Both the position numbers and the translations under genes were made by a program. The notes under the pieces are model-generated. The model was not told where the DNA came from and did no database searches. It was given only the letters and a program-made list of their open reading frames with translations. From UHGV virus genome UHGV-0060032: a stretch of 14,617 nt of DNA; one strand, written 5' to 3'. The DNA is from a virus. The first letter of the stretch is position 1. Every line of letters starts with the position of its first letter. Positions 1 through 14,617 of this stretch are shown piece after piece.

Positions 1-49
1 TTAATCACATATCGTGAATAATTAATTCATCTAACCACTGGAGGTTGAT

Positions 50-265
50 ATGAACAACATTGCAGAGCAGCGAAAAAAAATTGGGATTTCGCAAGCCGCT
101 CTGGCTTCTGCCATAGGCTGGGGGCAGTCGCGAATTGCCAATTATGAGCTTGATATCCGCACCCCTGGTCTGCCGGAAAGTCGCCTTATTGTCGAGGGCC
201 TGAACCGTCTCGGTTGCAATTGCTCCCTTGATGACGTTTTCCCACCAACTACCAGCGCAGCCTAA
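50..265 (+). CDS. Cro-like HTH (XRE-family) transcriptional regulator
   Basis: 71-aa ORF with GGAGG RBS at 40-44; helix-turn-helix-like segment IGISQAALASAIGWGQSRIANYE; sits immediately upstream of nutR and cII, the position of cro in lambdoid phages. Confidence 0.65.
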   Translation: MNNIAEQRKKIGISQAALASAIGWGQSRIANYELDIRTPGLPESRLIVEGLNRLGCNCSLDDVFPPTTSAA

Positions 266-273
266 GTAACACC

Positions 274-306
274 CGCTCTTATCACATCTAAGCCCTGAAA
301 AAGGGC
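274..306 (+). promoter_or_regulatory. nutR-like N-utilisation site: boxA CGCTCTTA (274-281) and boxB hairpin GCCCTGAAAAAGGGC (292-306)
   Basis: boxA matches the lambda boxA consensus and boxB matches lambda nutR boxB as I recall it; GCCCT/AGGGC is a perfect 5-bp inverted repeat with an A-rich loop, located between cro and cII. Confidence 0.75.
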
Positions 307-388
307 GATTCAAAACAACAAGTCTTAAAGGCTATGCGTGTCTGCACATTGGCCTATTTAACTATTTAACACTCTAGGAATTTAACAA

Positions 389-688
389 ATGGAAAACTCA
401 ATTAACCGCAACAAGGTCAATGCCCGTCGCATTGAGTCCTGGTTGCTTAACCGTATCGCTATGAAAGGTGGCAACAACGTAGCTAAAGAGATCGGCGTTG
501 ATAAGGCACAGATAACCCGCTGGAAAGAAACGTGGCTGCCGAAGATGGCAATGCTGCTTGCTGTTCTTGAATGGGGCGTCGTTGACGACGATATGGCTCG
601 ATTGGCACGACAAGTTGCTTCGATTCTCACCAATAAAAAACGCCCGGCGGCAACCGAGCGTTCTGAACAAATCCAGATGGAATTCTGA
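389..688 (+). CDS. cII: CII-like transcriptional activator
   Basis: 99-aa product; the stretch RIESWLLNRIAMKG...LLAVLEWGVVDDDMARLARQVASILTNKKRPAATERSEQIQMEF is near-identical to lambda CII as I recall it; position after cro/nutR. Confidence 0.85.
   Translation: MENSINRNKVNARRIESWLLNRIAMKGGNNVAKEIGVDKAQITRWKETWLPKMAMLLAVLEWGVVDDDMARLARQVASILTNKKRPAATERSEQIQMEF
398..411 (-). promoter_or_regulatory. PRE-like CII-binding -35 element (TTGC-N6-TTGA on minus strand)
   Basis: Reverse complement of 398-411 is TTGCGGTTAATTGA. In lambda the CII site TTGCN6TTGC of PRE lies antisense inside the first codons of cII, as it does here. Confidence 0.4.
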
Positions 689-720
689 GGTAATTACTGG
701 ATCAATCCACAGGAGTCATT

Positions 721-1590
721 ATGACAAATACAGCAAAAATACTCAACTTCGGCAGAGGTAACTTTGCCGAACAGGAGCTAAGAGTGGCTGATATCGATGA
801 TGGTTACACCAGATTCGCTAACGAGCTGCTGGAAGCTATCGCAAGTGCCGATTTAACCGCTCGCCAGTTGAAAGTTATGCTGGCCTACGTCCGGAAAACA
901 TATGGATTCAATAAGAAAACAGATCGAATAGCCGATGAGCAAATTGCTCAGTTAACAGGACTATCAAGGCAGAATGTTAACAAGGCTAAAAAAGAACTGA
1001 TTTCAATGAATTGCCTGTTTATGGATGGAAATCAAATCGGTGTAAACAGGGAGGTATCTGCGTGGCAATTCAGCAAGTGTCTCCAAGTTAGCAACTTTGT
1101 CTCGAAGTTAGAGACAAAAAATGTCTCCAAATTAGAGACACTCAATGTCTCGAAGTTAGAGACACTCAATGTCTCGAAGTTAGAGACACACAAAAGACAT
1201 TCTTTAAAGACAAAAGAAAATATTAATAAACCCCCTATATCCCCCAAAAAAATTTCTCAGAAGTTCGACCCGCTAGAAACAGAGTTGCCTGATTGGTTAT
1301 CGGCAGAAACATGGTTGTCGTGGGTTACCTATCGCAAGGAGATAGGTAAGTCGATCAAGTCTAAGCAAAGCGTCACTCAGGCTATCAACGTTCTAAGCAG
1401 AAGTCTGGAGAAGGGATATACACCTGAAGAAATTATAAACCAGAGCATCGCCAGTGGTTGGCAGGGGATTTTTGAACCCAAGACTCCAAAGGGGAAATCT
1501 CAACCGAGGCCGCAGCAGCGAGCTATGCAGGAAAACTTTGCCGCCAAAGATTACGGGCAAACTGAAATGCCTTCATGGGCGCAGGAGTGA
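721..1590 (+). CDS. Replication initiator, lambda O-like (iteron-binding N-terminal domain)
   Basis: N-terminus MTNTAKILNFGRGNFAEQE...DDGY...LKVMLAYVRKTYGFNK closely resembles lambda O N-terminal domain; the gene contains the iteron array; RBS AGGAG upstream. Confidence 0.8.
   Translation: MTNTAKILNFGRGNFAEQELRVADIDDGYTRFANELLEAIASADLTARQLKVMLAYVRKTYGFNKKTDRIADEQIAQLTGLSRQNVNKAKKELISMNCLFMDGNQIGVNREVSAWQFSKCLQVSNFVSKLETKNVSKLETLNVSKLETLNVSKLETHKRHSLKTKENINKPPISPKKISQKFDPLETELPDWLSAETWLSWVTYRKEIGKSIKSKQSVTQAINVLSRSLEKGYTPEEIINQSIASGWQGIFEPKTPKGKSQPRPQQRAMQENFAAKDYGQTEMPSWAQE
1078..1260 (+). repeat. Origin of replication: iteron array plus AT-rich tract inside the O-like gene
   Basis: Four copies of the palindromic 19-mer TGTCTC-N7-GAGACA at 1098, 1122, 1146 and 1170 (exact 24-bp spacing), a degenerate copy at 1078, then an A/T-rich stretch 1189-1260. 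This mirrors ori-lambda organisation. Confidence 0.8.
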
Positions 1591-1592
1591 AT

Positions 1593-2486
1593 ATGAATAC
1601 GACAAATGGTTACAATCTGGCACTGCAAAGGCAACTTGTAGACTCAAAAATCAATGACATTTCTGATCTGAAACAGAAACTTGAGTTTAGCAAAATTGGA
1701 TCAGTATCAGATGGAATGTCAGTTACCAGCACAGTGGAAGAGTGCGAGAAACACGGTAAATATACTTCCTATGAGAAATATCTGACCATCTCAGGAAAAA
1801 GAATTACTTCAAGTAAATCTGAGTGCCCACAGTGCCTTGAGGAGAAAATTCGTAAGAAAGAGATTGAACGTGAGCAGGCAGAACAAAGAGCAAGACAATC
1901 AAAAATTGAATATTTGTTGAATTCTCTCAATATTCCAGAGAGGTTCAAAAATTGCACTCTTCAGAATTATGAGCCTGTTAACGATGATGCAAAGCGAGTT
2001 CTTAAGGTATGCCAGGCATATGCCAGTAAGTGGCCTGAACGCCTTCAAAAAGGTGGCGGACTGGTCATGTGTGGTAAGCCTGGAACTGGAAAGAACCACC
2101 TTGCACTGGCTATCGCTAGGCACGCCATTATCGAGCATCAAAGCTCTGTGATATTTACCACTGCGTTGAAAATTGCCAGAGAGTACAAATCAACATGGTC
2201 TAAGGCCGCAACCAGAACTGAAGAAGAAGTCATTAGGCAATTTACGCATCCTGACTTGTTAATAATCGATGAGGTTGGCGTGCAGTTCGGCAGTGATGCT
2301 GAAAAGCTAATCATGTTCGAAATTATCAACACCAGATATGAATACATGAAGCCAACAATCCTGATTAGTAATCAGAGCAAAGATGAACTTTCGGCATTCA
2401 TTGGTGAGCGTGTTATTGACAGGATGAATGATGGCGGAGGGTGCACTCTTGCGTTTACATGGGATAGTTACAGGAGCAGATCGTGA
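1593..2486 (+). CDS. DnaC/IstB-like AAA+ helicase loader with N-terminal Cys-containing extension
   Basis: Walker A GKPGTGKNHLA and Walker B LLIIDEVG; CEKHG...CPQC motif near N-terminus; start at 1593 chosen for AGGAG RBS; occupies the lambda P position after O. Confidence 0.75.
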   Translation: MNTTNGYNLALQRQLVDSKINDISDLKQKLEFSKIGSVSDGMSVTSTVEECEKHGKYTSYEKYLTISGKRITSSKSECPQCLEEKIRKKEIEREQAEQRARQSKIEYLLNSLNIPERFKNCTLQNYEPVNDDAKRVLKVCQAYASKWPERLQKGGGLVMCGKPGTGKNHLALAIARHAIIEHQSSVIFTTALKIAREYKSTWSKAATRTEEEVIRQFTHPDLLIIDEVGVQFGSDAEKLIMFEIINTRYEYMKPTILISNQSKDELSAFIGERVIDRMNDGGGCTLAFTWDSYRSRS

Positions 2487-2773
2487 CTGGAAAAGAAATC
2501 ATCCTGGAATATCTGAAAACTCATGAACAATTCTCCCCACATGAATTAGCACTGATCACCGGAATACCAAATAACAGAATCGCTCAAGCAGCAAGGCATA
2601 TGGTGAAACAAGGACATTTGAGTGTTGTTGAGCGTAAGTGGAAGACGGTTATTTATGCAAAACGCAAAGTGAAGAAGGAGCCAATTAAAAGAAATCCAGA
2701 TGGTACGGGGTGGGGATGTGCAAATCCAATGACGGCGTTTATTAATAGGGCGCTTATGGAGGTAAGGCAATGA
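2483..2773 (+). CDS. Small hypothetical protein, possibly winged-helix DNA-binding
   Basis: 96-aa ORF with a GTG start overlapping the stop of the loader gene (translational coupling); basic C-terminus; no family recognised. Confidence 0.4.
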   Translation: MTGKEIILEYLKTHEQFSPHELALITGIPNNRIAQAARHMVKQGHLSVVERKWKTVIYAKRKVKKEPIKRNPDGTGWGCANPMTAFINRALMEVRQ

Positions 2774-2798
2774 CCATCTACATCACTGAGCTAATAAC

Positions 2799-2830
2799 AG
2801 GCCTGCTGGTAATCGCAGGCCTTTTTATTT
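2799..2830 (+). terminator. Rho-independent terminator-like hairpin
   Basis: AGGCCTGC (2799-2806), 8-nt loop, GCAGGCCT (2815-2822), followed by TTTTATTT. Confidence 0.65.
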
Positions 2831-2859
2831 GGGGGAGAGGGAATTGGAGGCTTTAAGAA

Positions 2860-3075
2860 ATGAGTACGATAGCTGAGCTTGTCAGGGCTAATTTTCGTGA
2901 AGAGTTGGTGCGTTGGTATCGGTATCGTTCATCGTCCAGTTTGCCGATTGATGAGTTGTATGAGCATTCACCTGCTGCACGACGCTATCCGCGTGACCGT
3001 GTTCTTCGACGGTTGTCCAAACTCAACAATGAGTTTCAGCGCAACAGAATTATTCGGAGTCTGGATTTAAAGTAA
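2860..3075 (+). CDS. Hypothetical protein (71 aa)
   Basis: ORF with GGAGG RBS 8-12 nt upstream of ATG; no recognisable family. Confidence 0.4.
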   Translation: MSTIAELVRANFREELVRWYRYRSSSSLPIDELYEHSPAARRYPRDRVLRRLSKLNNEFQRNRIIRSLDLK

Positions 3076-3085
3076 AGGAGTGAGC

Positions 3086-3292
3086 ATGACAAATCAGCAG
3101 CAAATAGAGTTCATCCTTGAGCAGATTCGAAAAATGCGAGAAAAGAACCAGCCAGACATGATGGAAATATGGAGACGCCAGCAGGAAGAATACCGCAAGC
3201 ATATTTTTGGTGAGAGAAAACAGGATGACTGGAGCCTATATGGCTATGGCACCAGGACAAATAAAAACGGATATAGCCTTTACACATATTGA
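3086..3292 (+). CDS. Hypothetical protein (68 aa)
   Basis: ATG at 3086 preceded by AAGGAG; charged, helical-looking product; no recognisable family. Confidence 0.4.
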   Translation: MTNQQQIEFILEQIRKMREKNQPDMMEIWRRQQEEYRKHIFGERKQDDWSLYGYGTRTNKNGYSLYTY

Positions 3293-3300
3293 GGAATTCC

Positions 3301-3711
3301 ATGAAACAGACAATTTTCCTCAGGAGTAAGCAACAACAGCAAACCGCAATCACCGCCATCCTCGCAACACCACTCGATAAAGACAAGCCAGTTACCATCC
3401 GCATTACTGACTACAAGCGCAACCTTGACCAGAACGCAAAATTTCACGCGATGCTGGCGGATATCGCAAGTCAGGTTCAATGGTGCGGCAAATGGTTAAA
3501 ACCAGAACAATGGAAGGTTTTGTTGATAAGCGGTCATGCAGTGGCAACAAAGCAGGAAGCTGATGTTTTGCCCGGCCTTGAAGGCGAATACGTCAACATT
3601 CGCGAAAGCAGCGCGCAGATGAGCGTGAAGCGTATGGCAAGTCTGATCGAGTACACAACAGCATGGGCTATTGGTCAGGGTGTCAGATTTACCGACAGGA
3701 GGTACGAATGA
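3301..3711 (+). CDS. ninB: NinB-like recombination protein
   Basis: The segment [24 protein letters not shown]...[12 protein letters not shown] resembles lambda NinB as I recall it; GAGGAA RBS; first gene of a nin-like cluster. Confidence 0.6.
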
Positions 3712-3884
3712 GACGACAGCGACGAAGTATCACCGACATAATCTGCGAAAACTGCAAATACCTTCCAACGAAACGCTCCAGAAATAAACGCAAGCCAATC
3801 CCAAAAGAATCTGACGTAAAAACCTTCAACTACACGGCTCACCTGTGGGATATCCGGTGGCTAAGGCATCGTGCGAGGAAATGA
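3708..3884 (+). CDS. ninE: NinE-like small protein
   Basis: 58-aa basic product [19 protein letters not shown]...; ATGA overlap with ninB stop; size and position match ninE. Name is from recall and synteny only. Confidence 0.5.
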
Positions 3885-3886
3885 CA

Positions 3887-4297
3887 ATGGATTATTCACA
3901 GTTAAGTGATTTTGAAATTAACAAGCGAGTATGTGAGGCTTTAGATATGGAGGAGCATTTCTTCATACCTGATGACGAAGCAGATTTCGATTCTGAGATC
4001 CCCACTGACGAAAGAGGTCCTATTTGGCAGACGCAAAAAAGGGATATTAATGGCTTCCGTTCTTCAAACGGAAATTGCTTCAATCCTTGCAATAATCCTG
4101 AATATGCGTGGCCAATTATCACTGAAAACAAAATCAGCATAATGTTTGATAGTACCGATACGAGATATGAAGGCGAATATCACGAGTGGTGTGATGCGAT
4201 TTCATCTTGTCAAAAGTTCGGAATTCAGTATCAGTCTAATCCACTCCGCGCCGCCATGATTGTCTTTCTCATGATGCAGGACGCCAATAATGCTTAG
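3887..4297 (+). CDS. Hypothetical protein in NinX-like position (136 aa, acidic, Cys-containing)
   Basis: ORF between ninE-like and ninF-like genes; start at 3887 chosen for GAGGAA spacing (3881 also possible). The NinX call is positional only. Confidence 0.4.
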   Translation: MDYSQLSDFEINKRVCEALDMEEHFFIPDDEADFDSEIPTDERGPIWQTQKRDINGFRSSNGNCFNPCNNPEYAWPIITENKISIMFDSTDTRYEGEYHEWCDAISSCQKFGIQYQSNPLRAAMIVFLMMQDANNA

Positions 4298-4466
4298 CCC
4301 ATCCCAATCCCTTCAATACCAGAAAGAAAGCGTCGAGCGGGCTTTAACGTGCGCTAACTGCGGTCAGAAGCTGCATGTGCTGGAAGTTCACGTGTGCTCC
4401 GATTGCTGCGCAGAGCTGATGAGCGATCCGAATAGCTCAATGTACGAGGAAGAAGACGATGAATGA
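4290..4466 (+). CDS. ninF: NinF-like small Cys-rich protein
   Basis: 58-aa ORF absent from the supplied track (under 60 aa); MLSPSQSLQYQKESVERALTCANCGQKLHVLEVHVCSDCCAELMSDPNSSMYEEEDDE; CxxC...CxxCC pattern; overlaps both neighbours. Confidence 0.5.
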   Translation: MLSPSQSLQYQKESVERALTCANCGQKLHVLEVHVCSDCCAELMSDPNSSMYEEEDDE

Positions 4467-5181
4467 GTTAATAAATGGCAATGCCATCAAAATGACAAGC
4501 ATTGAAATCGCTGAGTTGGTGGGAAGTCGTCATGACAAGGTGAAACAATCTATTGAACGACTGGCGGCTCGAGGTGTGATCCGAAATCCCCCAATGGTGG
4601 TTTTCGAAAAAATCAATAACTTAGGATTACTTCGTGGCGTAGAGGCTTACGTTTTTGAGGGCGAACAAGGTAAGCGAGACAGCATTATTGTCGTCGCTCA
4701 GTTGTCGCCGGAATTCACCGCTCGTCTTGTTGACCGTTGGCGAGAGCTTGAAGAAGCTGCGGTTAATATCCCCAAAACGCTACCAGAAGCGTTGCGCCTT
4801 GCTGCTGATCTTGCTGAGCAGAAAATGCAACTGGAAAACCAGCTCGCAATTGCCGCACCTAAAGTTGAGTTTGCCGATCGCGTTGGCGAGGCCAGCGGAA
4901 TTTTGATTGGAAACTTTGCAAAGGTTGTTGGTATTGGTCCAAACAAACTGTTTGCGTGGATGCGCGATCACAAAATCCTTATTGCTTCAGGTTCCCGGCG
5001 CAATGTGCCAATGCAGGAATATATGGAGCGCGGCTATTTCACAGTGAAAGAAACAGCGGTCAACACAAATCACGGAATACAGATATCGTTCACCACAAAA
5101 ATCACCGGGCGTGGTCAACAGTGGCTGACCAGAAAGCTGCTCGATAACGGAATGCTGAAAGTAACAGGGGAGGCTGCTTAA
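4459..5181 (+). CDS. Phage antirepressor-like protein (Rha/AntA-like N-terminal region, KilA-C/ANT-like C-terminal region)
   Basis: 240 aa; N-terminal SIEIAELVGSRHDKVKQSIERL resembles Rha/Ant N-domains; C-terminal half (APKVEFADRVGE...YFTVKET...) resembles KilA-C domains. Assigned by recall of family motifs. Confidence 0.6.
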   Translation: MNELINGNAIKMTSIEIAELVGSRHDKVKQSIERLAARGVIRNPPMVVFEKINNLGLLRGVEAYVFEGEQGKRDSIIVVAQLSPEFTARLVDRWRELEEAAVNIPKTLPEALRLAADLAEQKMQLENQLAIAAPKVEFADRVGEASGILIGNFAKVVGIGPNKLFAWMRDHKILIASGSRRNVPMQEYMERGYFTVKETAVNTNHGIQISFTTKITGRGQQWLTRKLLDNGMLKVTGEAA

Positions 5182-5471
5182 TGGCCAATCTACGCAAAGA
5201 AGCACGCGGCAGAGAATGTCAGGTACGTATTTACGGCGTATGCAATGGCAATCCTGAAACTACAGTTCTGGCACATTACCGGATGGCTGGAATTTGCGGA
5301 ACGGGAATGAAACCTGACGACCTGATCGGCGCATGGGCTTGTAGCGACTGCCACGCGGAGATCGACCGACGCACCCATAACCTCGACAACAAAGACGCCA
5401 GACTTTACCACCTCGAAGGCGTGATCAGGACGCAGGCGATACTGCTGAAGGAGGGGAAGATTAAACCATGA
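5181..5471 (+). CDS. YbcO-like DUF1364 protein (putative nuclease)
   Basis: 96 aa; MANLRKEARGRECQVRIYGVCNGNPETTVLAHYR...CSDCHAEIDRR resembles E. coli prophage YbcO; sits directly upstream of rusA as in DLP12-type prophages. Confidence 0.6.
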   Translation: MANLRKEARGRECQVRIYGVCNGNPETTVLAHYRMAGICGTGMKPDDLIGAWACSDCHAEIDRRTHNLDNKDARLYHLEGVIRTQAILLKEGKIKP

Positions 5472-5830
5472 ACGAATATCAGTTTGTGCTTCCATACCCG
5501 CCGTCGCTGAATACCTACTGGAGAAGACGGGGAAGCCAATACTACATCAGCGATAAAGGCCAGAAATACCGAAAAGACGTTCAGCAAATCATTCGCCAAC
5601 TCAAGTTAGACATTTTCACCAAATCACGACTCCGTATCAAAGTCATCGCAGACGTTCCAGATTCCCGCCGCCGCGACCTCGACAACATCCTGAAAGGTTT
5701 ACTCGACTCCCTTATCCACGCCGGATTTGCGGAAGACGACGAGCAATTCGATGACATTCGCGTAATTCGTGGTGTGAAAGTACCAGGCGGACGGCTTGGA
5801 ATAAAAATCACCGAACTGGAGAACGCATGA
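5468..5830 (+). CDS. rusA: Holliday junction resolvase RusA
   Basis: 120 aa; LPYPPSLNTYWRRRG...RRRDLDNILKGLLDSL...GGRLGIKITEL matches the RusA family including the acidic catalytic RRDLDN motif. Confidence 0.8.
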   Translation: MNEYQFVLPYPPSLNTYWRRRGSQYYISDKGQKYRKDVQQIIRQLKLDIFTKSRLRIKVIADVPDSRRRDLDNILKGLLDSLIHAGFAEDDEQFDDIRVIRGVKVPGGRLGIKITELENA

Positions 5831-6015
5831 ACGCCACAATTCAAACGATACCAGAGCTTCTTATCCAGACACGAGGCAATCAGACCGAAGTGGCGAGGAT
5901 GCTTTCCTGCGCAAGAGGAACAGTGCTCAAGTACAACCGAGACAGCAAAGGCGAGCGTCACGTAATAGTTAACGGCGTCCTGATGGTCAAACAAGGCAAG
6001 AGGGGAAGACGATGA
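5827..6015 (+). CDS. ninH: NinH-like small DNA-binding protein
   Basis: 62 aa; TIPELLIQTRGNQTEVARMLSCARGTVLKY resembles lambda NinH (Fis-like HTH) as I recall it; directly upstream of Q. Confidence 0.5.
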   Translation: MNATIQTIPELLIQTRGNQTEVARMLSCARGTVLKYNRDSKGERHVIVNGVLMVKQGKRGRR

Positions 6016-6530
6016 GCATAAGAGAACTAAACCTCACCAAAGAGCAGCACGAGTGGCTGAATGGCTGGCTTGAACTGTGGGGCGCATGGGTTTATTCAGG
6101 TCGTCTGGAAAAGCGCATGAGCAGCGTAATAGCGAAGTTCATGGAGAGCGTAGAGCCGGGAAGAATTATGACAAGGCCAATGTGTAATGATGATGATGGA
6201 ATGTTGATTTCTCAGGTCGTTGATTCCGTCATGTACATTGACAAGAAAGCCTTTGGCATCCTCCTCAGCTACTACGCTCATGGTTCATCTAAGCGAGCAA
6301 TTGCATCCTACTATCACGCGACTGCAAAGCCACGCAAGATGTGTGGACGCGGTGGCGAGGGATGGAGAAAACCTTCACTGGCAACCTGTAGAAACGAAAT
6401 TGACGATATCCTGAAAGCGTCATTATTTGTTTTGTACCAACCAATGCAAAATGCTTTCAAAATGCGTAAACGTGTTGAGAAAGTTAAGCATGTTGCTGTT
6501 AAAAACCTTGACATGCAATTAGCCATTTAG
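6012..6530 (+). CDS. Late-gene antiterminator Q (P22 gp23 / DLP12 QuuD-like family)
   Basis: 172 aa; WLELWGAWVYSG...RPMCNDDDGMLI resembles the Q-antiterminator family; a late-promoter-like element overlaps its 3' end. Confidence 0.65.
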   Translation: MSIRELNLTKEQHEWLNGWLELWGAWVYSGRLEKRMSSVIAKFMESVEPGRIMTRPMCNDDDGMLISQVVDSVMYIDKKAFGILLSYYAHGSSKRAIASYYHATAKPRKMCGRGGEGWRKPSLATCRNEIDDILKASLFVLYQPMQNAFKMRKRVEKVKHVAVKNLDMQLAI

Positions 6531-6537
6531 CCATAAT
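6508..6537 (+). promoter_or_regulatory. pR'-like late promoter
   Basis: -35 TTGACA (6508-6513), 18-bp spacer, -10 CATAAT (6532-6537), overlapping the end of the Q gene. Confidence 0.6.
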
Positions 6538-6593
6538 TAGAGGGTAAGCTGCCGTTAGTGACTCTTAAGTTGCAACGGTGGCTTTTTTTATTT

Positions 6594-6668
6594 GGGTCAG
6601 TCGTATAAAGGTCATTACGGAAGGCTGTTAACCTTCTTATCGTGGTTCGAGTCCACGCTGTCCCGCCA
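6594..6668 (+). tRNA. tRNA-Asn (anticodon GUU), phage-encoded
   Basis: Hand-folded cloverleaf, 75 nt: acceptor GGGTCAG/CTGTCCC (one U-U mismatch), U8, anticodon stem GAAGG/CCTTC with loop CUGUUAA, T-arm CGTGG-TTCGAGT-CCACG, discriminator G and encoded CCA. Confidence 0.6.
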
Positions 6669-6673
6669 AACAT

Positions 6674-6749
6674 GCTGGTTTAGCTCCAATGGTAGAGCGG
6701 TCGCCTTGTAAGTGAATAGGTAGCGGTTCAAATCCGTTAACCGGCACCA
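6674..6749 (+). tRNA. tRNA-Thr (anticodon UGU), phage-encoded
   Basis: Hand-folded cloverleaf, 76 nt: acceptor GCTGGTT/AACCGGC, D-arm GCTC-CAATGGTA-GAGC, anticodon loop CUUGUAA (stem has one G-A mismatch), T-arm AGCGG-TTCAAAT-CCGTT, discriminator A and CCA. Confidence 0.55.
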
Positions 6750-6805
6750 AAAACCCAGCCAGGGTATCTTCAGCCGCAGAGCTGACATTGCCACACCCTA
6801 ACATT

Positions 6806-6830
6806 CCCGCCTTGAGCGGGTTTTTTATTT
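6806..6830 (+). terminator. Rho-independent terminator (tR'-like), after the tRNAs and before the lysis genes
   Basis: CCCGC (6806-6810), loop CTTGA, GCGGG (6816-6820), then TTTTTTATTT. Confidence 0.75.
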
Positions 6831-6938
6831 CAGGCTCACGGGAATCAATCACTACGTGCTTTGTTGAAAATCCAGCCAGTGAAGCCTGATCCTTTTCATA
6901 CACACACAGCGCCATCCGAAAAATCGGAGGTGAGGCCT

Positions 6939-7262
6939 ATGAAAATGCCATACAAACAAGATTTCATCGCTGCGCTACTTGCCGCCAAGGAGCAGGGTAT
7001 TGGTGCAATGCTGGCTTTTATCATGGCGTATCTGCGTGGTCGCTATAACGGCGGCGCGGTAACAAAAACGCTAATTGATGCGCTGATGTGCGCGATGATT
7101 GCCTGGTTCGTTCGTGACCTTCTGGACTTTATCGGCCTGAGCAGCAACCTCGCCTACATAGCCAGCGTCTTTATTGGATACATCGGCACCGATTCGATCG
7201 GCAATCTTATTAAAAAACTTGCAGCAAAAAAGGCGGGAGTTGACGATGCAAACCAGTCCTGA
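6939..7262 (+). CDS. Class I holin, lambda S-like, with dual-start motif
   Basis: 107 aa from ATG 6939; begins [27 protein letters not shown]..., near-identical in pattern to lambda S including the Met-Lys-Met dual start (second ATG at 6945). Confidence 0.85.
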
Positions 7263-7695
7263 CGGAATTGCTCTGATAAAAAAATTTGAAGGTTGTCGGC
7301 TGACTGCTTACCCCGACCCCGGAACGGGAGATGCGCCGTGGACCATCGGCTATGGCTGGACCCATCCGGTTGACGGAAAGCCAGTAAAGCGCGGTATGAC
7401 TATCGACCAGCAAACCGCTGACAGGCTTCTGAAAACAGGGCTTGTTGGTTATGAGAATGACGTGCTGAAAGTTGTCAGGGTGAAGCTGACACAAGGCCAG
7501 TTCGACGCACTGGTGTCGTTCGCTTACAACGTTGGGTCGCGTGCTCTTTCCACATCTACACTGCTGAAAAAGCTGAATGCTGGCGATATAAAAGGCGCGG
7601 CAGATGAATTTCTGCGCTGGAATAAATCAGGCGGAAAGGTGATGCCGGGGCTCACGAATCGCCGCAAGGCAGAGCGAGCTCTGTTCCTGTCATGA
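7246..7695 (+). CDS. Endolysin, lysozyme (glycoside hydrolase family 24, P22 gp19-like)
   Basis: 149 aa from ATG 7246; [33 protein letters not shown] and C-terminal [11 protein letters not shown] typical of T4/P22-type lysozymes; overlaps holin end. Confidence 0.85.
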
Positions 7696-8159
7696 TTAGC
7701 GCACTGGTTAAGCGTTACTGGCTGCAGTTGCTGGTGCTGGCGTTAATCGGCGCACTGGCTTTCTTCGTGAACCACTACCGCGACAACGCCATCACTTACA
7801 GAGACCAGCGCGATAAGGCCACTGAGAAACTCCTCCTGGCGACCGCCACCATTAAAGACATGCAGACCCGCCAGCGTGATGTCGCTGCACTGGATGCCAA
7901 ATACACCGGAGAACTGGCTGATGCGAAAGAAACCATTGAGCGTCTGCATAGCGATGTCATTGCTGGCCGTAAGCGGCTGCAAGTCGCCGCCACCTGTGCA
8001 AAGTCAACGACCGGAGCCAGCGGCATGGGCGATGGAGAAAGCCCAAGACTTACAGCAGATGCTGAACTCAATTATTACCGTCTCCGAAGTGGAATCGACA
8101 AGATAACCGCGCAGGTTAACTACCTGCAGGAGTACATCAGGACGCAATGCCTGAAATAA
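7692..8159 (+). CDS. Rz-like i-spanin
   Basis: 155 aa; N-terminal transmembrane segment [17 protein letters not shown] then charged coiled-coil-like region; ATGA overlap with lysozyme stop; contains Rz1 in the +1 frame. Confidence 0.8.
7921..8106 (+). CDS. Rz1-like o-spanin (outer-membrane lipoprotein) embedded within Rz
   Basis: 61 aa from ATG 7921: [20 protein letters not shown] (signal peptide plus lipobox Cys) followed by proline-rich [13 protein letters not shown]; fully nested in Rz. Confidence 0.75.
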
Positions 8160-8192
8160 TTTTTTTTGCAAATCACAAAGTCCATTTAATGA

Positions 8193-8216
8193 GCCTCGCG
8201 ATGCGGGGCTTTTTTA
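8193..8216 (+). terminator. Rho-independent terminator-like hairpin after the lysis cassette
   Basis: GCCTCGC (8193-8199), loop GAT, GCGGGGC (8203-8209, one G-U pair), followed by TTTTTT. Confidence 0.6.
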
Positions 8217-8359
8217 CATCTGAATTTCACAGCGCATCTCACGCGCATATTACCACTCAGAACCTTTCAGGATGACCCTTGAGGATACCGGCTGGCTGTC
8301 GGAGCATCTGAGGGCCGGATTTCCTGTGAGACAAGGTTCATCACTAAAAGGTAAATCCG

Positions 8360-8911
8360 ATGAATGATATTTCTATCGAATATCTGAAAGAAGCACTGGA
8401 ATACGCACCAGATACTGGTGTTATCCGTTGGAAGCAGCGACCAAAAATTCATTTTAAGACCGAAAATTCTTGGCGGGCGACCAATGCTAATTTTGCTGGA
8501 AAAGTAGCAGGCGCACGTGATAGCGATGGATATTTGCGTATCGGGATATGCGGCCGGTTATATAGATCTCATCGTGTAGCCTGGGCGTTACATTACGGCT
8601 ACTGGCCTGATAATGAGATTGATCACATTTCAGGCGATAGGAGTGATAACCGCATAGACAACTTGCGATCAGTAACTTCGGCAGCCAATAGCAAAAATTT
8701 GCGCCTTTACTCCACAAATAAAACCGGTATCCCAGGAGTAGGTTGGTATAAAGCGCGGGGAAAGTGGAGAGCAAAGATAAACGTCTCTGGGAAGGTGAAG
8801 CATATTGGTTACTTCGATGATTTCCGTGAAGCGGTGAAAGCAAGAAAGGCTGCCGAGATGCAGTTGCAATATCACAAAAATCACGGAACCAGAGACAGGC
8901 TCACTTTCTAA
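8360..8911 (+). CDS. HNH endonuclease with C-terminal AP2-like DNA-binding region
   Basis: 183 aa; HNH core HRVAWALHYGYWPDNEIDHISGDRSDNRIDNLR; C-terminal GIPGVGWYKARGKWRAKINVSGKVKHIGYFDDFREA resembles AP2 domains of phage endonucleases. Confidence 0.75.
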   Translation: MNDISIEYLKEALEYAPDTGVIRWKQRPKIHFKTENSWRATNANFAGKVAGARDSDGYLRIGICGRLYRSHRVAWALHYGYWPDNEIDHISGDRSDNRIDNLRSVTSAANSKNLRLYSTNKTGIPGVGWYKARGKWRAKINVSGKVKHIGYFDDFREAVKARKAAEMQLQYHKNHGTRDRLTF

Positions 8912-8925
8912 AAGGTAAAGACGCT

Positions 8926-9450
8926 ATGAATAATCATTCAGTTATTCCATCCTTCGACTTCCGAGAAATGGTGCAAGCCAAAAACGGAGAGGTCGTTACC
9001 ACATCCAGAAAAATTGCCAAGTACTTCGGCAAGCGACACGGTGATGTTCTCAGGAAAATCGAGCAGGTTAAGGCTGATTGCTCGCGTGAGTTTAGCCAAC
9101 GCAATTTTGCGTCGGCTGATTATATCGATGAGCAGGGCAAGGTTCGCCCGATGTACAGCCTGACGAAAGATGGCTGGATCATGGTTGTGATGGGGTTCAC
9201 CGGGAAAGCTGCTGCGGCAATCAAGGAGAGCTATATCGCAGCATTCAACTGGATGGCAGAGCAGCTAAACCGGCGCATGGCGATGGGTGAAGAATTGCAG
9301 CATCGCTACGCCATCAAAGAAACGCGCTCAAAGCTGAAAGGCACGTTCGGAAGCCGTTTGATGAACGAGCGGAAGAAAGAGAAGCGCGTCCTGGAGCTCG
9401 AACATGAGCACATCATGCAGGTAACGCAGCCGGAATTACTTATTGGCTGA
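8926..9450 (+). CDS. Phage regulatory protein Rha family
   Basis: 174 aa; VVTTSRKIAKYFGKRHGDVLRKIEQV...MYSLTKDGWIMVVMGF matches the Rha-domain pattern as I recall it. Confidence 0.65.
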   Translation: MNNHSVIPSFDFREMVQAKNGEVVTTSRKIAKYFGKRHGDVLRKIEQVKADCSREFSQRNFASADYIDEQGKVRPMYSLTKDGWIMVVMGFTGKAAAAIKESYIAAFNWMAEQLNRRMAMGEELQHRYAIKETRSKLKGTFGSRLMNERKKEKRVLELEHEHIMQVTQPELLIG

Positions 9451-9510
9451 TCGCGGCATTACAGAAGCCCTTCATTGAGGGGCTTCGATAATGGAGCACT
9501 GGAATTATTC

Positions 9511-10131
9511 ATGAACAGACCACACCCACCAGCGCATTTTACGATGCCACCTGACCCGAAGCCGTACATCAGCATTATGCCCGCTAATGACGTTGGCGAG
9601 TGGCTGAATCAGCACATCCTGAGCGATGAGGGTGACCTCTACAACCATGACCACCAGCATTTGCTTGAAGCGGATCTGTGCTTTCTCTGGGCATCGAACG
9701 CTTTCGAGAAGAAAGGGCGTTCCGTGCTGGGGCAGGCGGAAGAAGTGGCAATGCGGGCCGGAGGCTGGCAGAAAGCGCGGATGGAGCAGCAGATGTATGA
9801 ATGGTTCGGCAGGGTGCCGCAGTTCATCATCACGCTGGCCGCCGATTACTGCTCGCAATGTTCCGATCTGGAATTCTGCGCGCTGATAGAGCACGAGCTT
9901 TATCACATCTGCCAAGCGACAGATGAATTTGGTGCGCCGAAGTTCACGCAGGAAGGGCAGCCAAAGCTGAAGCTGCGCGGCCATGACGTGGAAGAGTTTG
10001 TGGGCGTGGTTCGCCGTTACGGTGCGAGCCGGGACGTGCAGGAAATGATTGATGCGGCGAATCAGCCAGCGGAGGTTGCTCATCTCGATATTGCCAGAGC
10101 GTGCGGGACGTGCATGCTGCGACTGGCTTAA
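9511..10131 (+). CDS. Hypothetical HExxH-motif protein (putative zinc metallopeptidase-like)
   Basis: 206 aa from ATG 9511 (TTG 9475 or ATG 9544 also possible); HExxH motif in ALIEHELYHI preceded by CSQCSDLEFC; GC-rich codon usage like the packaging genes. Confidence 0.5.
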   Translation: MNRPHPPAHFTMPPDPKPYISIMPANDVGEWLNQHILSDEGDLYNHDHQHLLEADLCFLWASNAFEKKGRSVLGQAEEVAMRAGGWQKARMEQQMYEWFGRVPQFIITLAADYCSQCSDLEFCALIEHELYHICQATDEFGAPKFTQEGQPKLKLRGHDVEEFVGVVRRYGASRDVQEMIDAANQPAEVAHLDIARACGTCMLRLA

Positions 10132-10162
10132 ATACTGGACTGTATAAGACGAATGGTGATTT

Positions 10163-10636
10163 ATGGCTGCATTAAAACCTGATGTGAAAGCCTTCATCAT
10201 TCAGTCGCTTGCGTGCTATGACACGCCATCGCAGGTGGTCGAGGCTGTCCAAAAAGAATTCGGGATCAGGATCACCCGCCAGCAGGCTGAATCTCACGAC
10301 CCCACGAAGGCCAGCGGTAAGACGCTCGCCAAAAAGTGGATCGAGATGTTCCACGCGACGCGCGAACGGTTCCTGACCGAAACCAGCGACATTCCGATAG
10401 CGAACAAATCCTATCGCCTCCGCGTGCTTGACCGCATGGCAACCAAAACCGAGGGGATGAAAAACTTCTCCCTGACGGCGCAGCTTATCGAACAGGCCGC
10501 GAAAGAGGTTGGCGACGCTTACACCAATAAGCTGAAGGTTGAGAGCACTGGCAAGGATGGCGGCCCGATCAAGACCGAGACGACCAACCTCACCGCAGAT
10601 CAGGCCGCAGAGATTTACCGCAAGATGATGGGGTGA
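10163..10636 (+). CDS. Terminase small subunit (DUF2280-like)
   Basis: 157 aa; [35 protein letters not shown] resembles the DUF2280 putative small-terminase family as I recall it; directly upstream of and overlapping TerL. Confidence 0.6.
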
Positions 10637-10638
10637 TC

Positions 10639-12261
10639 ATGCCTCTCCCGTTTGAATTCGATTTCAGAAACCCTGATTACCAGATGGTTTTTGAATGGCG
10701 GATGGAGCGCTTACAGCGCATTCGCCAGAACCCTGAAATGCTGCCAGCGCTAAAGCAGTTTTATCGCACCAACCCGGCACAGTTCATCATCGACTGGGGT
10801 ATGACTACTGACCCGCGTAACATCGATTATGGCCTGCCGGTCACCATCCCTTTTCTGCTGTTCCCGAAACAGGAAGAGTGGATTCACTGGATCATGGAGC
10901 GGCGCGAACGACTGGAGAACGGCATCACCGAAAAGAGCCGCGAAATGGGGCTCAGTTGGACCGCGATCGGGCTGGCCTGCTCGCTTTGTCTCTTCAACAA
11001 AGAAATGGTTATCGGTTTCGGCTCCCGTAAAGAGGAATACGTCGACAGCACCGGTGACCCGAAGGCGCTGTTCTGGAAGGCGCGAAAGTTCGTGGAAACA
11101 CTGCCCATCGAGTTTCGTGGTTCGTGGGACGAGAAGAAGCATGCGCCGTATATGCGCGTTGAGTTTCCCGATACTGGCGCGGTCATCAAAGGCGAGGCTG
11201 GCGACAATATCGGTCGTGGTGACCGTACCACGCTCTACCTGGTGGATGAAGCTGCATTCCTCCAGCGTCCTCTGTTGATTGATGCGGCGCTGTCGCAAAC
11301 CACCCGTTGCCGTATTGACCTGAGCTCGGTTAATGGCATGGCGAACCCGTTCGCGCAGAAGCGTCACGGCGGGAAGATACCGGTATTCACATTCCACTGG
11401 CGGGATGATCCTCGCAAGGATGAAGAGTGGTATCGCAGGGAGTGCGAGAAAATCGACAATCCGGTGGTGGTGGCGCAGGAACTTGACCTGAACTACAGCG
11501 CATCTGCGGAAGGCGTCCTGATCCCGTCCGACTGGGTACAGGCTGCCGTCGACGCGCATATCAAACTTGGTATTCAGCCAACGGGCAAGCGACTGGGCGC
11601 GATGGACGTCGCCGACGAAGGCCGGGACAAAAATGCCTTTTCGACCCGTCACGGCTTCCTTCTGGAGAACGTGCGTGAATGGTCCGGCGTGGGCAGCGAC
11701 ATTTACCAGTCCGTTGAGAAGGTCTTCGGCTTTTGCGAACAGGACAACCTCGAAGAATTTCGCTTCGACGAGGACGGCCTGGGCGCTGGCGTTCGCGGCG
11801 ATGCACGCGCCATCAACGAACTGCGTAACGCTGCGCGCCGACCGTCAATACTCGCCACACCGTTTCGTGGTAGCGGCGCGGTATTTGATCCGGACGATGA
11901 AGCGGTGCGCGGGGACAACGGACAGGCCGCACGCCTGAACAAGGACTTCTTCGCCAACGCCAAGGCCCAGAGCTGGTGGCATTTACGCAAGCTTTTCCAG
12001 AACACCTATCGCGCCGTGGTTGAGGGCATGGCCTACAACCCGGACGAAATCATCTCAATCAGCAGCGCCATGGCGAGCAAAGACAAACTCATCATCGAGC
12101 TGTCGCAGCCGACCTACTCCATTAATGGCGTGGGGAAAATCGTTGTTGATAAACAGCCTGATGGCACCAAGTCGCCGAACCTCGCCGACTCGGTGATGAT
12201 CAGCTACGCGCCAATGAATTCAGCCCTGAACATCTGGGAGCTGCTAGGGAGACAGGCCTGA
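10639..12261 (+). CDS. Terminase large subunit
   Basis: 540 aa from ATG 10639 (in-frame GTG at 10633); Walker-B-like [11 protein letters not shown]; size and position between TerS and portal; acidic C-terminal half consistent with a nuclease domain. Confidence 0.75.
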
Positions 12262-13730
12262 TGGCACGAAACAAGCAATCCTCTCAGCGAACGGCACAGC
12301 CCACCGCTGACGGCTACGAGAACTTCGTCGCCCGTGTTGGGATGCAGACGCCTAACCAGCATTCAGCATCGACCTACCGGGCGAACTCCACCAGCCGCAA
12401 CCGCATGCTGGTGGAATGGTCATATCGCGGTTCGTGGGTTATCGGTGAAGCGGTCGACGCTATCCCGGACGATATGACCCGAAAGGGCATTCGCATCACT
12501 TCGGAGATTGACGCCAAAGACCGTGGCACCCTCGAAGCGCAACTGGATGAGTTGCAGATCTGGGATGCGCTGAACGACGTGCTGAAATGGTCGCGCCTCT
12601 ACGGCGGCGCGGTCGGCTTCATCATGATCGAGGGGCAAGCACCAATGACCCCGCTGCGACTCGAAACCATTGGCGAGGGCAAGTTTAAGGGCATTCTCCC
12701 GCTCGACCGCTGGATGATTAACCCGGTGCTGACACGCCGCATTAAAGAGATGGGGCCGGACCTCGGCAAGCCTGAGTTTTACGACGTGGTGACCACCGCA
12801 ACGGGCATTCCGGCCTGGCGCATCCATCACAGCCGCCTGATCCGCTTTGATGGCGTCACGCTGCCATTCCAGCAGAAGATGACCGAAAACGAATGGGGAA
12901 TGTCGGTTGTAGAGCGTATCTGGGATCGGCTTACTGCGTTCGATAGCGCTACTGTCGGCGCGGCGCAGCTGGTCTATAAAGCGCATCTGCGTACCTATAG
13001 CGTGGAGAAGTTGCGCGAGCTTATCGCGCTTGGAGGCCCGGCGTTCGAAGCGTTGCTGAAGAACATCGACCTGATCCGCCAGTTCCAGAGCAATGAAGGT
13101 ATGACGCTCATGGACTCGCGGGATAAGTTCGAAACCCACCAGTACAGCTTTAGTGGTCTGGATGACATTCTTTCGCAGTTTGCTGAGCAGATCAGCGGTG
13201 CCGTTGGTATCCCGCTGGTACGCCTGTTCGGTCAATCCCCGAAAGGCTTCTCTACTGGTGATGCAGACCTCGCCAACTATTACGACCGGGTGAGCTCATT
13301 GCAGGAGCGCCGCTTACGGCTGCCGATGCGCCGGATACTGGACATTATGCACCGCTCGGAACTCGGAAAGCCGCTGCCGGACGATTTCACGTTTGAGTTT
13401 AACCCGCTATGGCAAATGTCAGACGTTGACCGATCAACGGTGGCCGTAAACACCACCAACGCGATCAGTACCGCGCTGGGCGACGGATTGATGACGCGTA
13501 AGGCGGCGATGACCGACCTGCGCGAAAACTCTGACGTCACCGGCATCGGGGCATCCATTACCGACGAGGATATCGAGAATGCCGAAGACGAAGCGCCGCC
13601 AGGCATCGGCGAACTTGGCGACAAACCGCCAGAGTCGCCAGGCGGAGATCCGATATCGAACGAGCCTACGGCAGATAGCGCGGGCGGTCGGGGATATCGT
13701 AAATGGGCGCTACGATGGTTCAAACGATAG
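12261..13730 (+). CDS. Portal protein
   Basis: 489 aa; ATGA overlap with TerL stop; position after TerL and before a Mu-F-like gene (SPP1-type order); acidic low-complexity C-terminus. Confidence 0.7.
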   Translation: MARNKQSSQRTAQPTADGYENFVARVGMQTPNQHSASTYRANSTSRNRMLVEWSYRGSWVIGEAVDAIPDDMTRKGIRITSEIDAKDRGTLEAQLDELQIWDALNDVLKWSRLYGGAVGFIMIEGQAPMTPLRLETIGEGKFKGILPLDRWMINPVLTRRIKEMGPDLGKPEFYDVVTTATGIPAWRIHHSRLIRFDGVTLPFQQKMTENEWGMSVVERIWDRLTAFDSATVGAAQLVYKAHLRTYSVEKLRELIALGGPAFEALLKNIDLIRQFQSNEGMTLMDSRDKFETHQYSFSGLDDILSQFAEQISGAVGIPLVRLFGQSPKGFSTGDADLANYYDRVSSLQERRLRLPMRRILDIMHRSELGKPLPDDFTFEFNPLWQMSDVDRSTVAVNTTNAISTALGDGLMTRKAAMTDLRENSDVTGIGASITDEDIENAEDEAPPGIGELGDKPPESPGGDPISNEPTADSAGGRGYRKWALRWFKR

Positions 13731-14352
13731 CGTCACCGAAATAATGGATGCGCTGGAGCGCTACAGCGAAATCATCACCCCCTGGGCGACGAAGGTTGCT
13801 GAGAACTTCACCGCAGACATAGCGCGCCAGAATGAAAAGCAGTGGCGTCAGCACAGCCGGAACATCAGCGCAGAGCTGCGCAACATGGTTGACCGCGCCC
13901 CGGTAGGCCAGGTGATGAAATCCATCGTTGCCGAGCAAATTAAGTACATTAAATCGCTGCCTCTTGAGGCCGCCGATCGGGTGTATGACATTCAGAACAA
14001 AGCCATCGAGGCTGTTGTGACTGGTGGCCGCGCTGAGCCATTCGCGAAAGAGATAGCTGCTTCCGGTGACGTGTCACGCTCACGAGCGAACCTTATCGCC
14101 CGGACTGAGCTTGGGCGCGCAACCGGTGCACTGGATCAGGCGCGTGCGCTGTCAATCGGCTCGAATGGTTATATCTGGCGTACAGCCGAAGATGGCGACG
14201 TCCGGCATTCTCATCGAGAGATGGAAGGGAAGTTTGTCGAATGGGGCCGACCTCCAACGCTTGACGGCATGACCGGTCACGCCGGGGAGTTACCTAACTG
14301 CCGTTGCTACAAAGAAATCGTATTCCCGACACCTCATCCCTATCTCGCCTGA
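13579..14352 (+). CDS. Head morphogenesis protein (Mu F / SPP1 gp7 family)
   Basis: Conserved C-terminal region ANLIARTELGRATGALDQARALSIGSNGYIWRTAEDGDVRHSHREMEGK... typical of Mu-F-like proteins. Start is uncertain: ATG 13579 has a GAGGA RBS but overlaps portal by 152 nt; ATG 13744 is the alternative. Confidence 0.7.
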   Translation: MPKTKRRQASANLATNRQSRQAEIRYRTSLRQIARAVGDIVNGRYDGSNDSVTEIMDALERYSEIITPWATKVAENFTADIARQNEKQWRQHSRNISAELRNMVDRAPVGQVMKSIVAEQIKYIKSLPLEAADRVYDIQNKAIEAVVTGGRAEPFAKEIAASGDVSRSRANLIARTELGRATGALDQARALSIGSNGYIWRTAEDGDVRHSHREMEGKFVEWGRPPTLDGMTGHAGELPNCRCYKEIVFPTPHPYLA

Positions 14353-14366
14353 ATTGCAGGTAACCC

Positions 14367-14567
14367 ATGGAAAAAACAATCTATTTCCTGAAAGAACAGG
14401 CCAGCGAAGCTACGCGCATCACTGCTAAATACAATGGCGTAGAGGCTATTTATCAATCTGTTGGTGATAGAGCAAAGCGCTGCCAACTTATAGGTCGTGG
14501 TAATGCGCGTCAGATAAAGCATCTGCTGCGTGAGTTTATTAAATCCACTAAGGCGGCGGATGGATGA
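14367..14567 (+). CDS. Hypothetical small protein (66 aa)
   Basis: ORF just after the Mu-F-like gene, same strand; no recognisable family. Confidence 0.35.
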   Translation: MEKTIYFLKEQASEATRITAKYNGVEAIYQSVGDRAKRCQLIGRGNARQIKHLLREFIKSTKAADG

Positions 14568-14617
14568 AATATTTCTTCTACACCCGGCTGGGGGAAACCC
14601 GCTATCAGCTGGCTGAC
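14564..14617 (+). CDS. Hypothetical protein, 5' fragment truncated by window end
   Basis: ATG at 14564 overlaps the preceding stop (ATGA); reads MKYFFYTRLGETRYQLAD to the window edge. Confidence 0.3.
   Translation, partial: MKYFFYTRLGETRYQLAD

Follow-up and report, generated by a model that had tools for sequence, protein, structure and literature searches.

The ninX locus and its surroundings

The window, meaning the whole 14,617-nt stretch that was analyzed (virus genome UHGV-0060032), is an ordinary mosaic lambdoid genome with O/DnaC-like replication genes, a lysis cassette, terminase, and portal. In the region of interest the gene order is NinB-NinE-NinX-NinF-Roi-YbcO-RusA-NinH-Q, in which Roi is Roi/antirepressor-like. 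The gene studied here is the 136-aa ORF between the ninE-like and ninF-like genes (table 1). A sequence-only reading of the same DNA had described its product as an acidic, Cys-containing protein in the position of P22 ninX, and the composition is as described (pI of 4.2; 25 acidic versus 10 basic residues; net charge of −15; 18% Asp+Glu; 5 Cys and 3 Trp). The proposed flanking genes hold up as well, each matching its own Pfam family. Along the adjacent small genes at 3708–4466, the pI of the products goes from 11.2 (NinE) to 4.2 (NinX) and 4.3 (NinF), and NinX and NinF are the sole acidic products among the otherwise basic early proteins of the window.

Table 1. Features of ninX and its immediate neighbors (positions in the window)
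Feature	Position	Strand	Description and evidence
ninE	3708..3884	+	58 aa, pI 11.2; PF05322, E 7e-44; 5′ neighbor of ninX
Shine-Dalgarno-like GAGGA	3875..3879	+	7 nt 5′ of ATG 3887; read from sequence
ATGA coupling motif	3881..3884	+	ninE TGA stop overlapping the alternative ninX ATG
ninX CDS	3887..4297	+	136 aa; ORF list, PF10765, PHROG 444, Sf101 DNA match
Conserved 5′ segment	3887..3922	+	Part of helix 1 (MDYSQLSDFEIN); DNA-identical to P22-type ninX
Hypervariable segment 1	3938..4081	+	Residues 18–65, holding the acidic patch 22–42; alignment A1
Conserved core (FNPCNNPEYAWPIITENKISIM)	4082..4147	+	Loop, helix 2, strand 1
Hypervariable segment 2	4148..4237	+	Residues 88–117, sheet strands 2–3; pLDDT 49–59 at 94–101
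Conserved 3′ segment	4242..4297	+	C-terminal helix (LRAAMIVFLMMQDANNA) and stop; DNA-identical to P22-type; overlaps ninF start
ninF	4290..4466	+	58 aa, pI 4.3, CxxC...CxxC; PF05810, E 8e-14; 3′ neighbor of ninX

The start codon of ninX is ambiguous as read from the sequence and may be ATG 3887 or ATG 3881. The former follows the Shine-Dalgarno-like motif and is the start annotated for ninX in Shigella phage Sf101. The latter, which forms part of the ATGA motif, would yield a 138-aa NinX, as in the database homolog P0001, and both starts (136 aa and 138 aa) are in use among databases. ATGA overlaps between genes are typical of nin regions (PMC8022706). At the other end, the TAG stop of ninX at 4295–4297 overlaps the start of ninF (ATG 4290). 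Neither the antisense ORF at 3892–4140 nor the +2 frame ORF at 3972–4142 matched a phage family, no Rfam family was found inside ninX, and no promoter or terminator exceeded chance within 3200–4800.

Several other features of the window were recorded. Within the O-like replication gene (721–1590), positions 1098–1193 comprise four tandem 24-bp units (TGTCTCGAAGTTAGAGACACTCAA, 88% matches) that encode NVSKLETL four times in the O-like protein; they are probably origin iterons of the kind present in other lambdoid O genes. Upstream of ninB are two small basic ORFs, at 2483–2773 (96 aa) and 3080–3292 (70 aa), with no Pfam or PADLOC match, and the ORF between them (2860–3075) is DUF7301. Genes for tRNA-Asn-GTT (6594–6668) and tRNA-Thr-TGT (6674–6749) lie between the Q antiterminator gene (6012–6530) and the holin gene. 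An HNH_3 endonuclease ORF at 8360–8911 (183 aa; PF13392, E 8e-19), with the lysis cassette on one side and the Rha/terminase region on the other, is possibly homing or packaging-associated. Farther along is a putative phage metallopeptidase gene (9475–10131, plus strand; PF18894, E 4e-43), overlapped by a 231-aa antisense ORF (9505–10200, minus strand) that most likely arises from the higher local G+C content. G+C content steps from ∼0.41–0.50 in the early and lysis genes (∼1–9000) to 0.55–0.59 in the packaging and head genes (∼9000–14617). The left part of the window resembles mEpX1-like coliphages, and positions 6897–14617 match Citrobacter phage Omnitron at 96.6%. Together, the step in composition and the split likeness to different phages mark a mosaic join.

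Family membership and predicted fold

Judged from its sequence, the 136-aa protein (hereafter the query) is a full-length homolog of NinX, beyond merely filling the P22 ninX slot. At the curated gathering threshold of PF10765 (Phage_P22_NinX, formerly DUF2591), it scores 55.1 bits against a cut-off of 22.6 (E 1.1e-14), with model positions 1–114 of 114 aligned to query residues 2–131. It also matches PHROG 444 (E 1.1e-42), which is labeled as of unknown function. These two matches show ninX to be a real gene and not a chance ORF. The sequence-only reading had recognized no motif in the protein, which is wrong because the protein matches a curated family. The same reading had named a confident match to a characterized family with unrelated function as the result that would overturn it; the match to PF10765 is confident, but the family is itself uncharacterized and so does not overturn the reading. 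Alignment A1 of the family has three conserved blocks, namely a MDYSxLSDFEINxxVA helix, a FNPCNNPADAWPIIxxNxIS core, and a C-terminal helix (NPLRAAMIVFLMMQ). The query carries every invariant and nearly invariant column of this alignment, and its N-terminal LSDFEIN..V helix, PCNNPxxAWPII core, and C-terminal PLRAAMIVFLMM helix are all present.

The family is large and found in diverse phages. Clusters at 90% identity number 1479 around the query and 3802 around a Burkholderia member, and at 50% identity there are 1768 representatives. Among deposited phage records, 654 contain relatives, including those of Vibrio phages and of virulent Jersey-like and T1-like siphoviruses; the family occurs in both temperate and virulent phages, with Enterobacterales, Vibrio, Burkholderia, and others as hosts. 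Of 5426 complete E. coli genomes, 1108 match at least the conserved ends of ninX. The slot between ninE and ninF is the same in the query, Sf101, and ST104, and the NinE-NinX-NinF order is found in 53 of 79 related viral loci; in some loci, NinB or Dam directly precedes NinX or no NinF follows it. The members listed are stand-alone proteins, typically of ∼100–140 aa, and among 240 listed homologs of two distant queries there were no domain fusions, with PF10765 being the sole Pfam domain where one was found. Searches of Pfam at E ≤ 10 with the query and nine relatives revealed no second family or clan relative, an NCBIfam scan of NinX gave no match, and PADLOC defense profiles did not match NinX, NinE, or NinF at E ≤ 0.01. 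In the literature on NinX and DUF2591 (PF10765), we found genome-annotation mentions only and no functional study.

Structure prediction, which had been put forward in the sequence-only reading as a check, gave an AlphaFold model of the query (built with the family alignment) with a pLDDT of 84 and a pTM of 0.81. The model runs from helix 8–18 through a folded connector, helix 71–80, and strands 84–87, 102–105, and 113–116 to helix 119–135, with low confidence confined to residues 94–101. The minimal member P0032 (101 aa) has a short connector in place of segment 1, and its model has the same core without the query's connector (pLDDT of 87.5). For both models the best PDB match in Foldseek is 4QYB, at a probability of 0.96 and TM of 0.54/0.62 with the query and a probability of 1.0 and TM of 0.63–0.64 with P0032; the E-values are modest (0.13–0.018). 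A viral structure library returned matches to uncharacterized phage proteins only.

4QYB and 4PUP are structural genomics entries for an "uncharacterized protein" of Burkholderia cenocepacia J2315, for which we found no publication. The sequence of 4QYB passes the PF10765 threshold (E 4.4e-16) and is itself a member, so the fold of the NinX family is experimentally known. A bridge is provided by gp38 of Burkholderia phage JC1 (PF10765, E 2.8e-18), which matches both 4QYB and 4PUP at E ∼1e-11. The link between the query and 4QYB comes solely from Foldseek and this bridge; PDB sequence searches with the query alone and with the family profile returned nothing useful. Comparison of the A1 profile with the 4QYB sequence was weak (probability of 2%), and the membership of 4QYB therefore rests on its own Pfam score.

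Conservation across branches was examined in a joint alignment of 60 enterobacterial members, 60 beta-proteobacterial members, and 4QYB. Columns common to both branches are V15, A16, G20, P67, P76, I77, I78, I83, W101, P119, L120, A122, A123, and M124, all of which are hydrophobic or structural. Conversely, D8, N12, C68, and R121 look invariant in one branch and differ in the other; R121 is an enterobacterial feature, replaced by Ile or Val in beta-proteobacterial members. Because polar positions differ between branches, the family has neither a catalytic signature nor a conserved basic nucleic-acid-binding motif. A candidate Zn or disulfide site comprising C68, H99, C102, and C108 was rejected as a family feature because conservation is limited to C68 and, for that residue, to the enterobacterial branch, the other branch having Ser.

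Acidity is a property of the family as well as of the query. The most acidic 20-residue windows of the query (net charge of −7 to −9) start at residues 16–26 and cover residues 22–42, the N-terminal stretch singled out as acidic in the sequence-only reading (EEHFFIPDDEADFDSEIPTDE). Two distant branches have median pI values of 4.6 and 4.8, and basic proteins make up <1% of members, but the acidic positions themselves are not conserved across branches.

Hypervariable segments and conserved ends

Variation in NinX is concentrated in two segments that lie between conserved blocks. In the core that separates them, P67, C68, N69, N70, P71, A74, W75, P76, I77, I78, and I83 are invariant or nearly so in A1, and P76, I77, I78, and I83 are kept in the beta-proteobacterial branch and 4QYB too. 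Among 211 NinX sequences, segment 1 is represented by 111 types, ranging in length from 13 to 52 aa, and segment 2 by 115 types. The two segments reassort independently between ninX alleles. Segment types occur in 169 combinations in the 211 sequences; the query's type of segment 1 is paired with other types of segment 2 in 10 sequences, and its type of segment 2 with other types of segment 1 in 34. Among deposited phages, Sf101 alone has the query's type of segment 2. An origin of the segments in proteins other than NinX was checked by tblastn of each one in 50,697 phage records, and NinX genes were the only hits.

The ends of the gene and its neighbors show the opposite pattern. Across 53 loci, median DNA identity is 97% over the first 39 nt of ninX and 89% over the last 57 nt. 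In the same loci, pairwise identity is 95% for NinE and 93% for NinF versus 28% for the middle of NinX. The loci and homologs were retrieved through conserved end motifs, so the conservation of the ninX ends is partly inflated by the retrieval; that of NinE and NinF is not affected.

The P22-type allele, as in phage ST104, illustrates how far alleles diverge between near-identical ends. P22 NinX is the founding member of PF10765. The P22-type gene and the query are DNA-identical over the first ∼36 nt and the last ∼56 nt (alignment A2), and their products have helix 1 (MDYSQLSDFEIN), the CNxPxxxWPII core, and the C-terminal helix (PLRAAMIVFLMMQDANNA) in common. Nevertheless, the P22-type protein, at 113 aa, has just 35% identity to the query and has neither the query's 48-residue acidic segment 1 nor its segment 2. 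Published comparisons are similar. The nin region of Sf101 equals that of HK544 except for ninX, at 43% (PMC4159516), and ninX is among the nin genes that diverge between phages L and P22 (PMC8022706).

Other genomes carry essentially the query's allele. The NinX gene of Sf101 (AII27874.1) has 98.8% nucleotide identity to the query gene and shares the ninE-ninX-ninF slot, and genes that eight complete E. coli genomes (e.g., NZ_CP010160) list as "phage protein NinX family protein" have 97–99.5% nucleotide identity. These alleles match over all 411 nt, share the start, and differ from the query by a handful of substitutions. The genes after ninF are different: Roi, YbcO, and RusA in the window versus NinG in Sf101. 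The query's allele is thus already deposited and named ninX, and Pfam, PHROGs, and NCBI annotation all include the family as a curated entry. In the viral contig IMGVR_UViG_3300045988_067434 (L004), positions 4001–4411 hold a ninX allele 100% identical to that of the window. A 100-nt stretch that precedes ninX by ∼0.9 kb in the window is absent there, and because the upstream flanks differ, the allele appears in more than one phage background.

The cause of the hypervariability could be of two kinds. Relaxed constraint on loops and an exposed sheet, together with recombination at the conserved gene ends, could account for the pattern; the cassette-like variability could likewise reflect a role in an arms race. 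Counts by codon position in near-identical ninX alleles (10 synonymous and 14 nonsynonymous changes) are too few for a selection test.

Possible roles of NinX

We consider it highly probable that the gene is ninX of a lambdoid phage or prophage and that its product belongs to the NinX family and is a nonenzymatic accessory protein. The gene is a nonessential accessory one in the rightward delayed-early operon, fitted tightly between ninE and ninF so that start and stop codons overlap or adjoin; plaque formation does not require the nin genes (PMC10695390). NinX has a small, acidic alpha/beta fold in which a variable connector leads from helix 1 to helix 2, followed by a three-stranded sheet and then helix 3. 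How the protein works is a more tentative matter. One possibility, to which we give limited credence, is that NinX functions nonenzymatically through partner binding, with the variable segments affecting specificity. It would act stoichiometrically by binding another macromolecule, for example, a basic protein, from host or phage, with a role in DNA metabolism or defense. The three conserved helices would form a scaffold for the two hypervariable, independently reassorting segments, through which partner specificity would be set or evaded. Stoichiometric binding is the likeliest mechanism because the hydrophobic core alone is conserved, with no polar or catalytic residues, and because members are never fused and consistently acidic. 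The argument for a binding protein is therefore one from negatives: no catalytic residues, no fusions, and no match to a defense family.

NinX may be a diversifying protein of host interaction or counter-defense, in which a scaffold presents two reassorting hypervariable modules, but we regard this as rather unlikely. The modules would be exchanged between phages via the DNA-identical gene ends, with each allele recognizing or evading its own variant of a host factor (e.g., a defense system) or a factor of a competing phage. Such a role would explain the divergence of ninX alone within nin regions that are otherwise identical.

The sequence-only reading is partly supported: it placed the gene correctly, whereas its remark that small acidic phage proteins can act as DNA mimics has acidity as its only positive evidence here. 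If NinX were a mimic, its carboxylate-rich surface would pass for the DNA backbone and sequester a DNA-binding enzyme of the host, for instance, a type I restriction enzyme, RecBCD, or a nucleoid protein. The charge of the query and the maintenance of acidity across very divergent branches, despite turnover of the acidic positions, are consistent with mimicry, as are the restriction of acidity to NinX and NinF in an otherwise basic early operon and early expression alongside the recombination functions NinB/Orf and RusA. Conversely, most alleles lack or replace the segment that bears the strongest acidic patch, and even in near relatives the acidic residues of the patch are replaced (SFGAGFSP and SFQSGFLP). 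Classical mimics such as Ocr and ArdA have a higher charge density than NinX, and the literature offered no support. No known mimic was present among PDB sequence matches or the top 50 Foldseek matches of the two models, but DNA mimics are not known to have a fold in common, and the missing match therefore weighs weakly. On balance, family-wide acidity stands in favor of the suggestion, the lack of a mimic match and the unconserved patch count against it, and we judge mimicry to be improbable.

Two other readings are very doubtful. The gene could be filler with little or no function, persisting by hitch-hiking, its ends serving mainly as homologous-recombination linkers between nin modules and to carry translation signals of ninF. 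Near-identical DNA ends flanking middles of ∼28% protein identity would fit this, and so would the overlap of the ninX 3′ end with the ninF start, the dispensability of the nin region (PMC10695390), and the loci with NinB or Dam leading straight to NinX or with no NinF after it. But thousands of members are intact, as counted above in clusters and phage records, and the hydrophobic core and fold are preserved across distant phage groups; persistence free of selection is hard to reconcile with both.

The second is that a dsRBD-like module of NinX binds dsRNA or DNA structures in replication or recombination. In the model, the last ∼65 residues, from helix 71–80 through the three strands to helix 119–135, follow the alpha-beta-beta-beta-alpha order of the dsRBD fold. 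The dsRBDs of PKR, ADAR1, DHX9, MLE, R2D2, Staufen, and TRBP recur as weak Foldseek matches, and neighboring genes act on DNA. However, every such match is nonsignificant (E of 0.16 or worse and TM of 0.40 or lower; the best has an E of 0.16 and TM of 0.34–0.36). Unlike a dsRBD, NinX has an extra N-terminal helix and is acidic, as is the whole family, and it lacks a conserved basic RNA-binding motif, with no Lys or Arg conserved across branches. Strands 2–3, moreover, are hypervariable.

Least probable of all, and rejected here, is that the acidic segment is a decoy of the SSB C-terminal tail that competes for SSB-interacting proteins or docks NinB/Orf: its DFDSEIP (DFDDEIPL in relatives), found in the query and 18 of 82 sampled alleles of the same segment type, resembles the E. 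coli SSB tip DFDDDIPF, but recognition of that tip uses the terminal Phe and free carboxylate, whereas the motif in NinX is internal (residues 33–39), confidently folded (pLDDT ∼89–93), replaced by SFGAGFSP or SFQSGFLP in the same segment type, and absent from most of the family. The background to this reading is that interaction through the SSB-Ct hexapeptide DDDIPF is documented (PMC5872125) and that SSB-coated ssDNA is the proposed target of lambda Orf/NinB (PMC4118853).

Identification of the gene matters little in itself because the allele and the family are already annotated. Its value is that the NinX family is widespread yet uncharacterized, and the point worth carrying forward is NinX as a hypervariable cassette between two highly conserved neighbors. 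If the variability reflects selection, ninX alleles would offer a cheap and testable entry to a new phage–host or phage–phage interaction. Among proteins of known structure, 4QYB is the nearest point of comparison. It is from the beta-proteobacterial branch, has 11–17% identity to the query, and shares its hydrophobic core positions; it has Ser at the position of Cys68, Ile at that of R121, and no acidic segment 1, and it was crystallized as a disulfide-bridged dimer. T7 Ocr, ArdA, lambda Gam, and UGI, which have neither fold nor sequence similarity to NinX, are likewise small, acidic, early-expressed phage accessory proteins.
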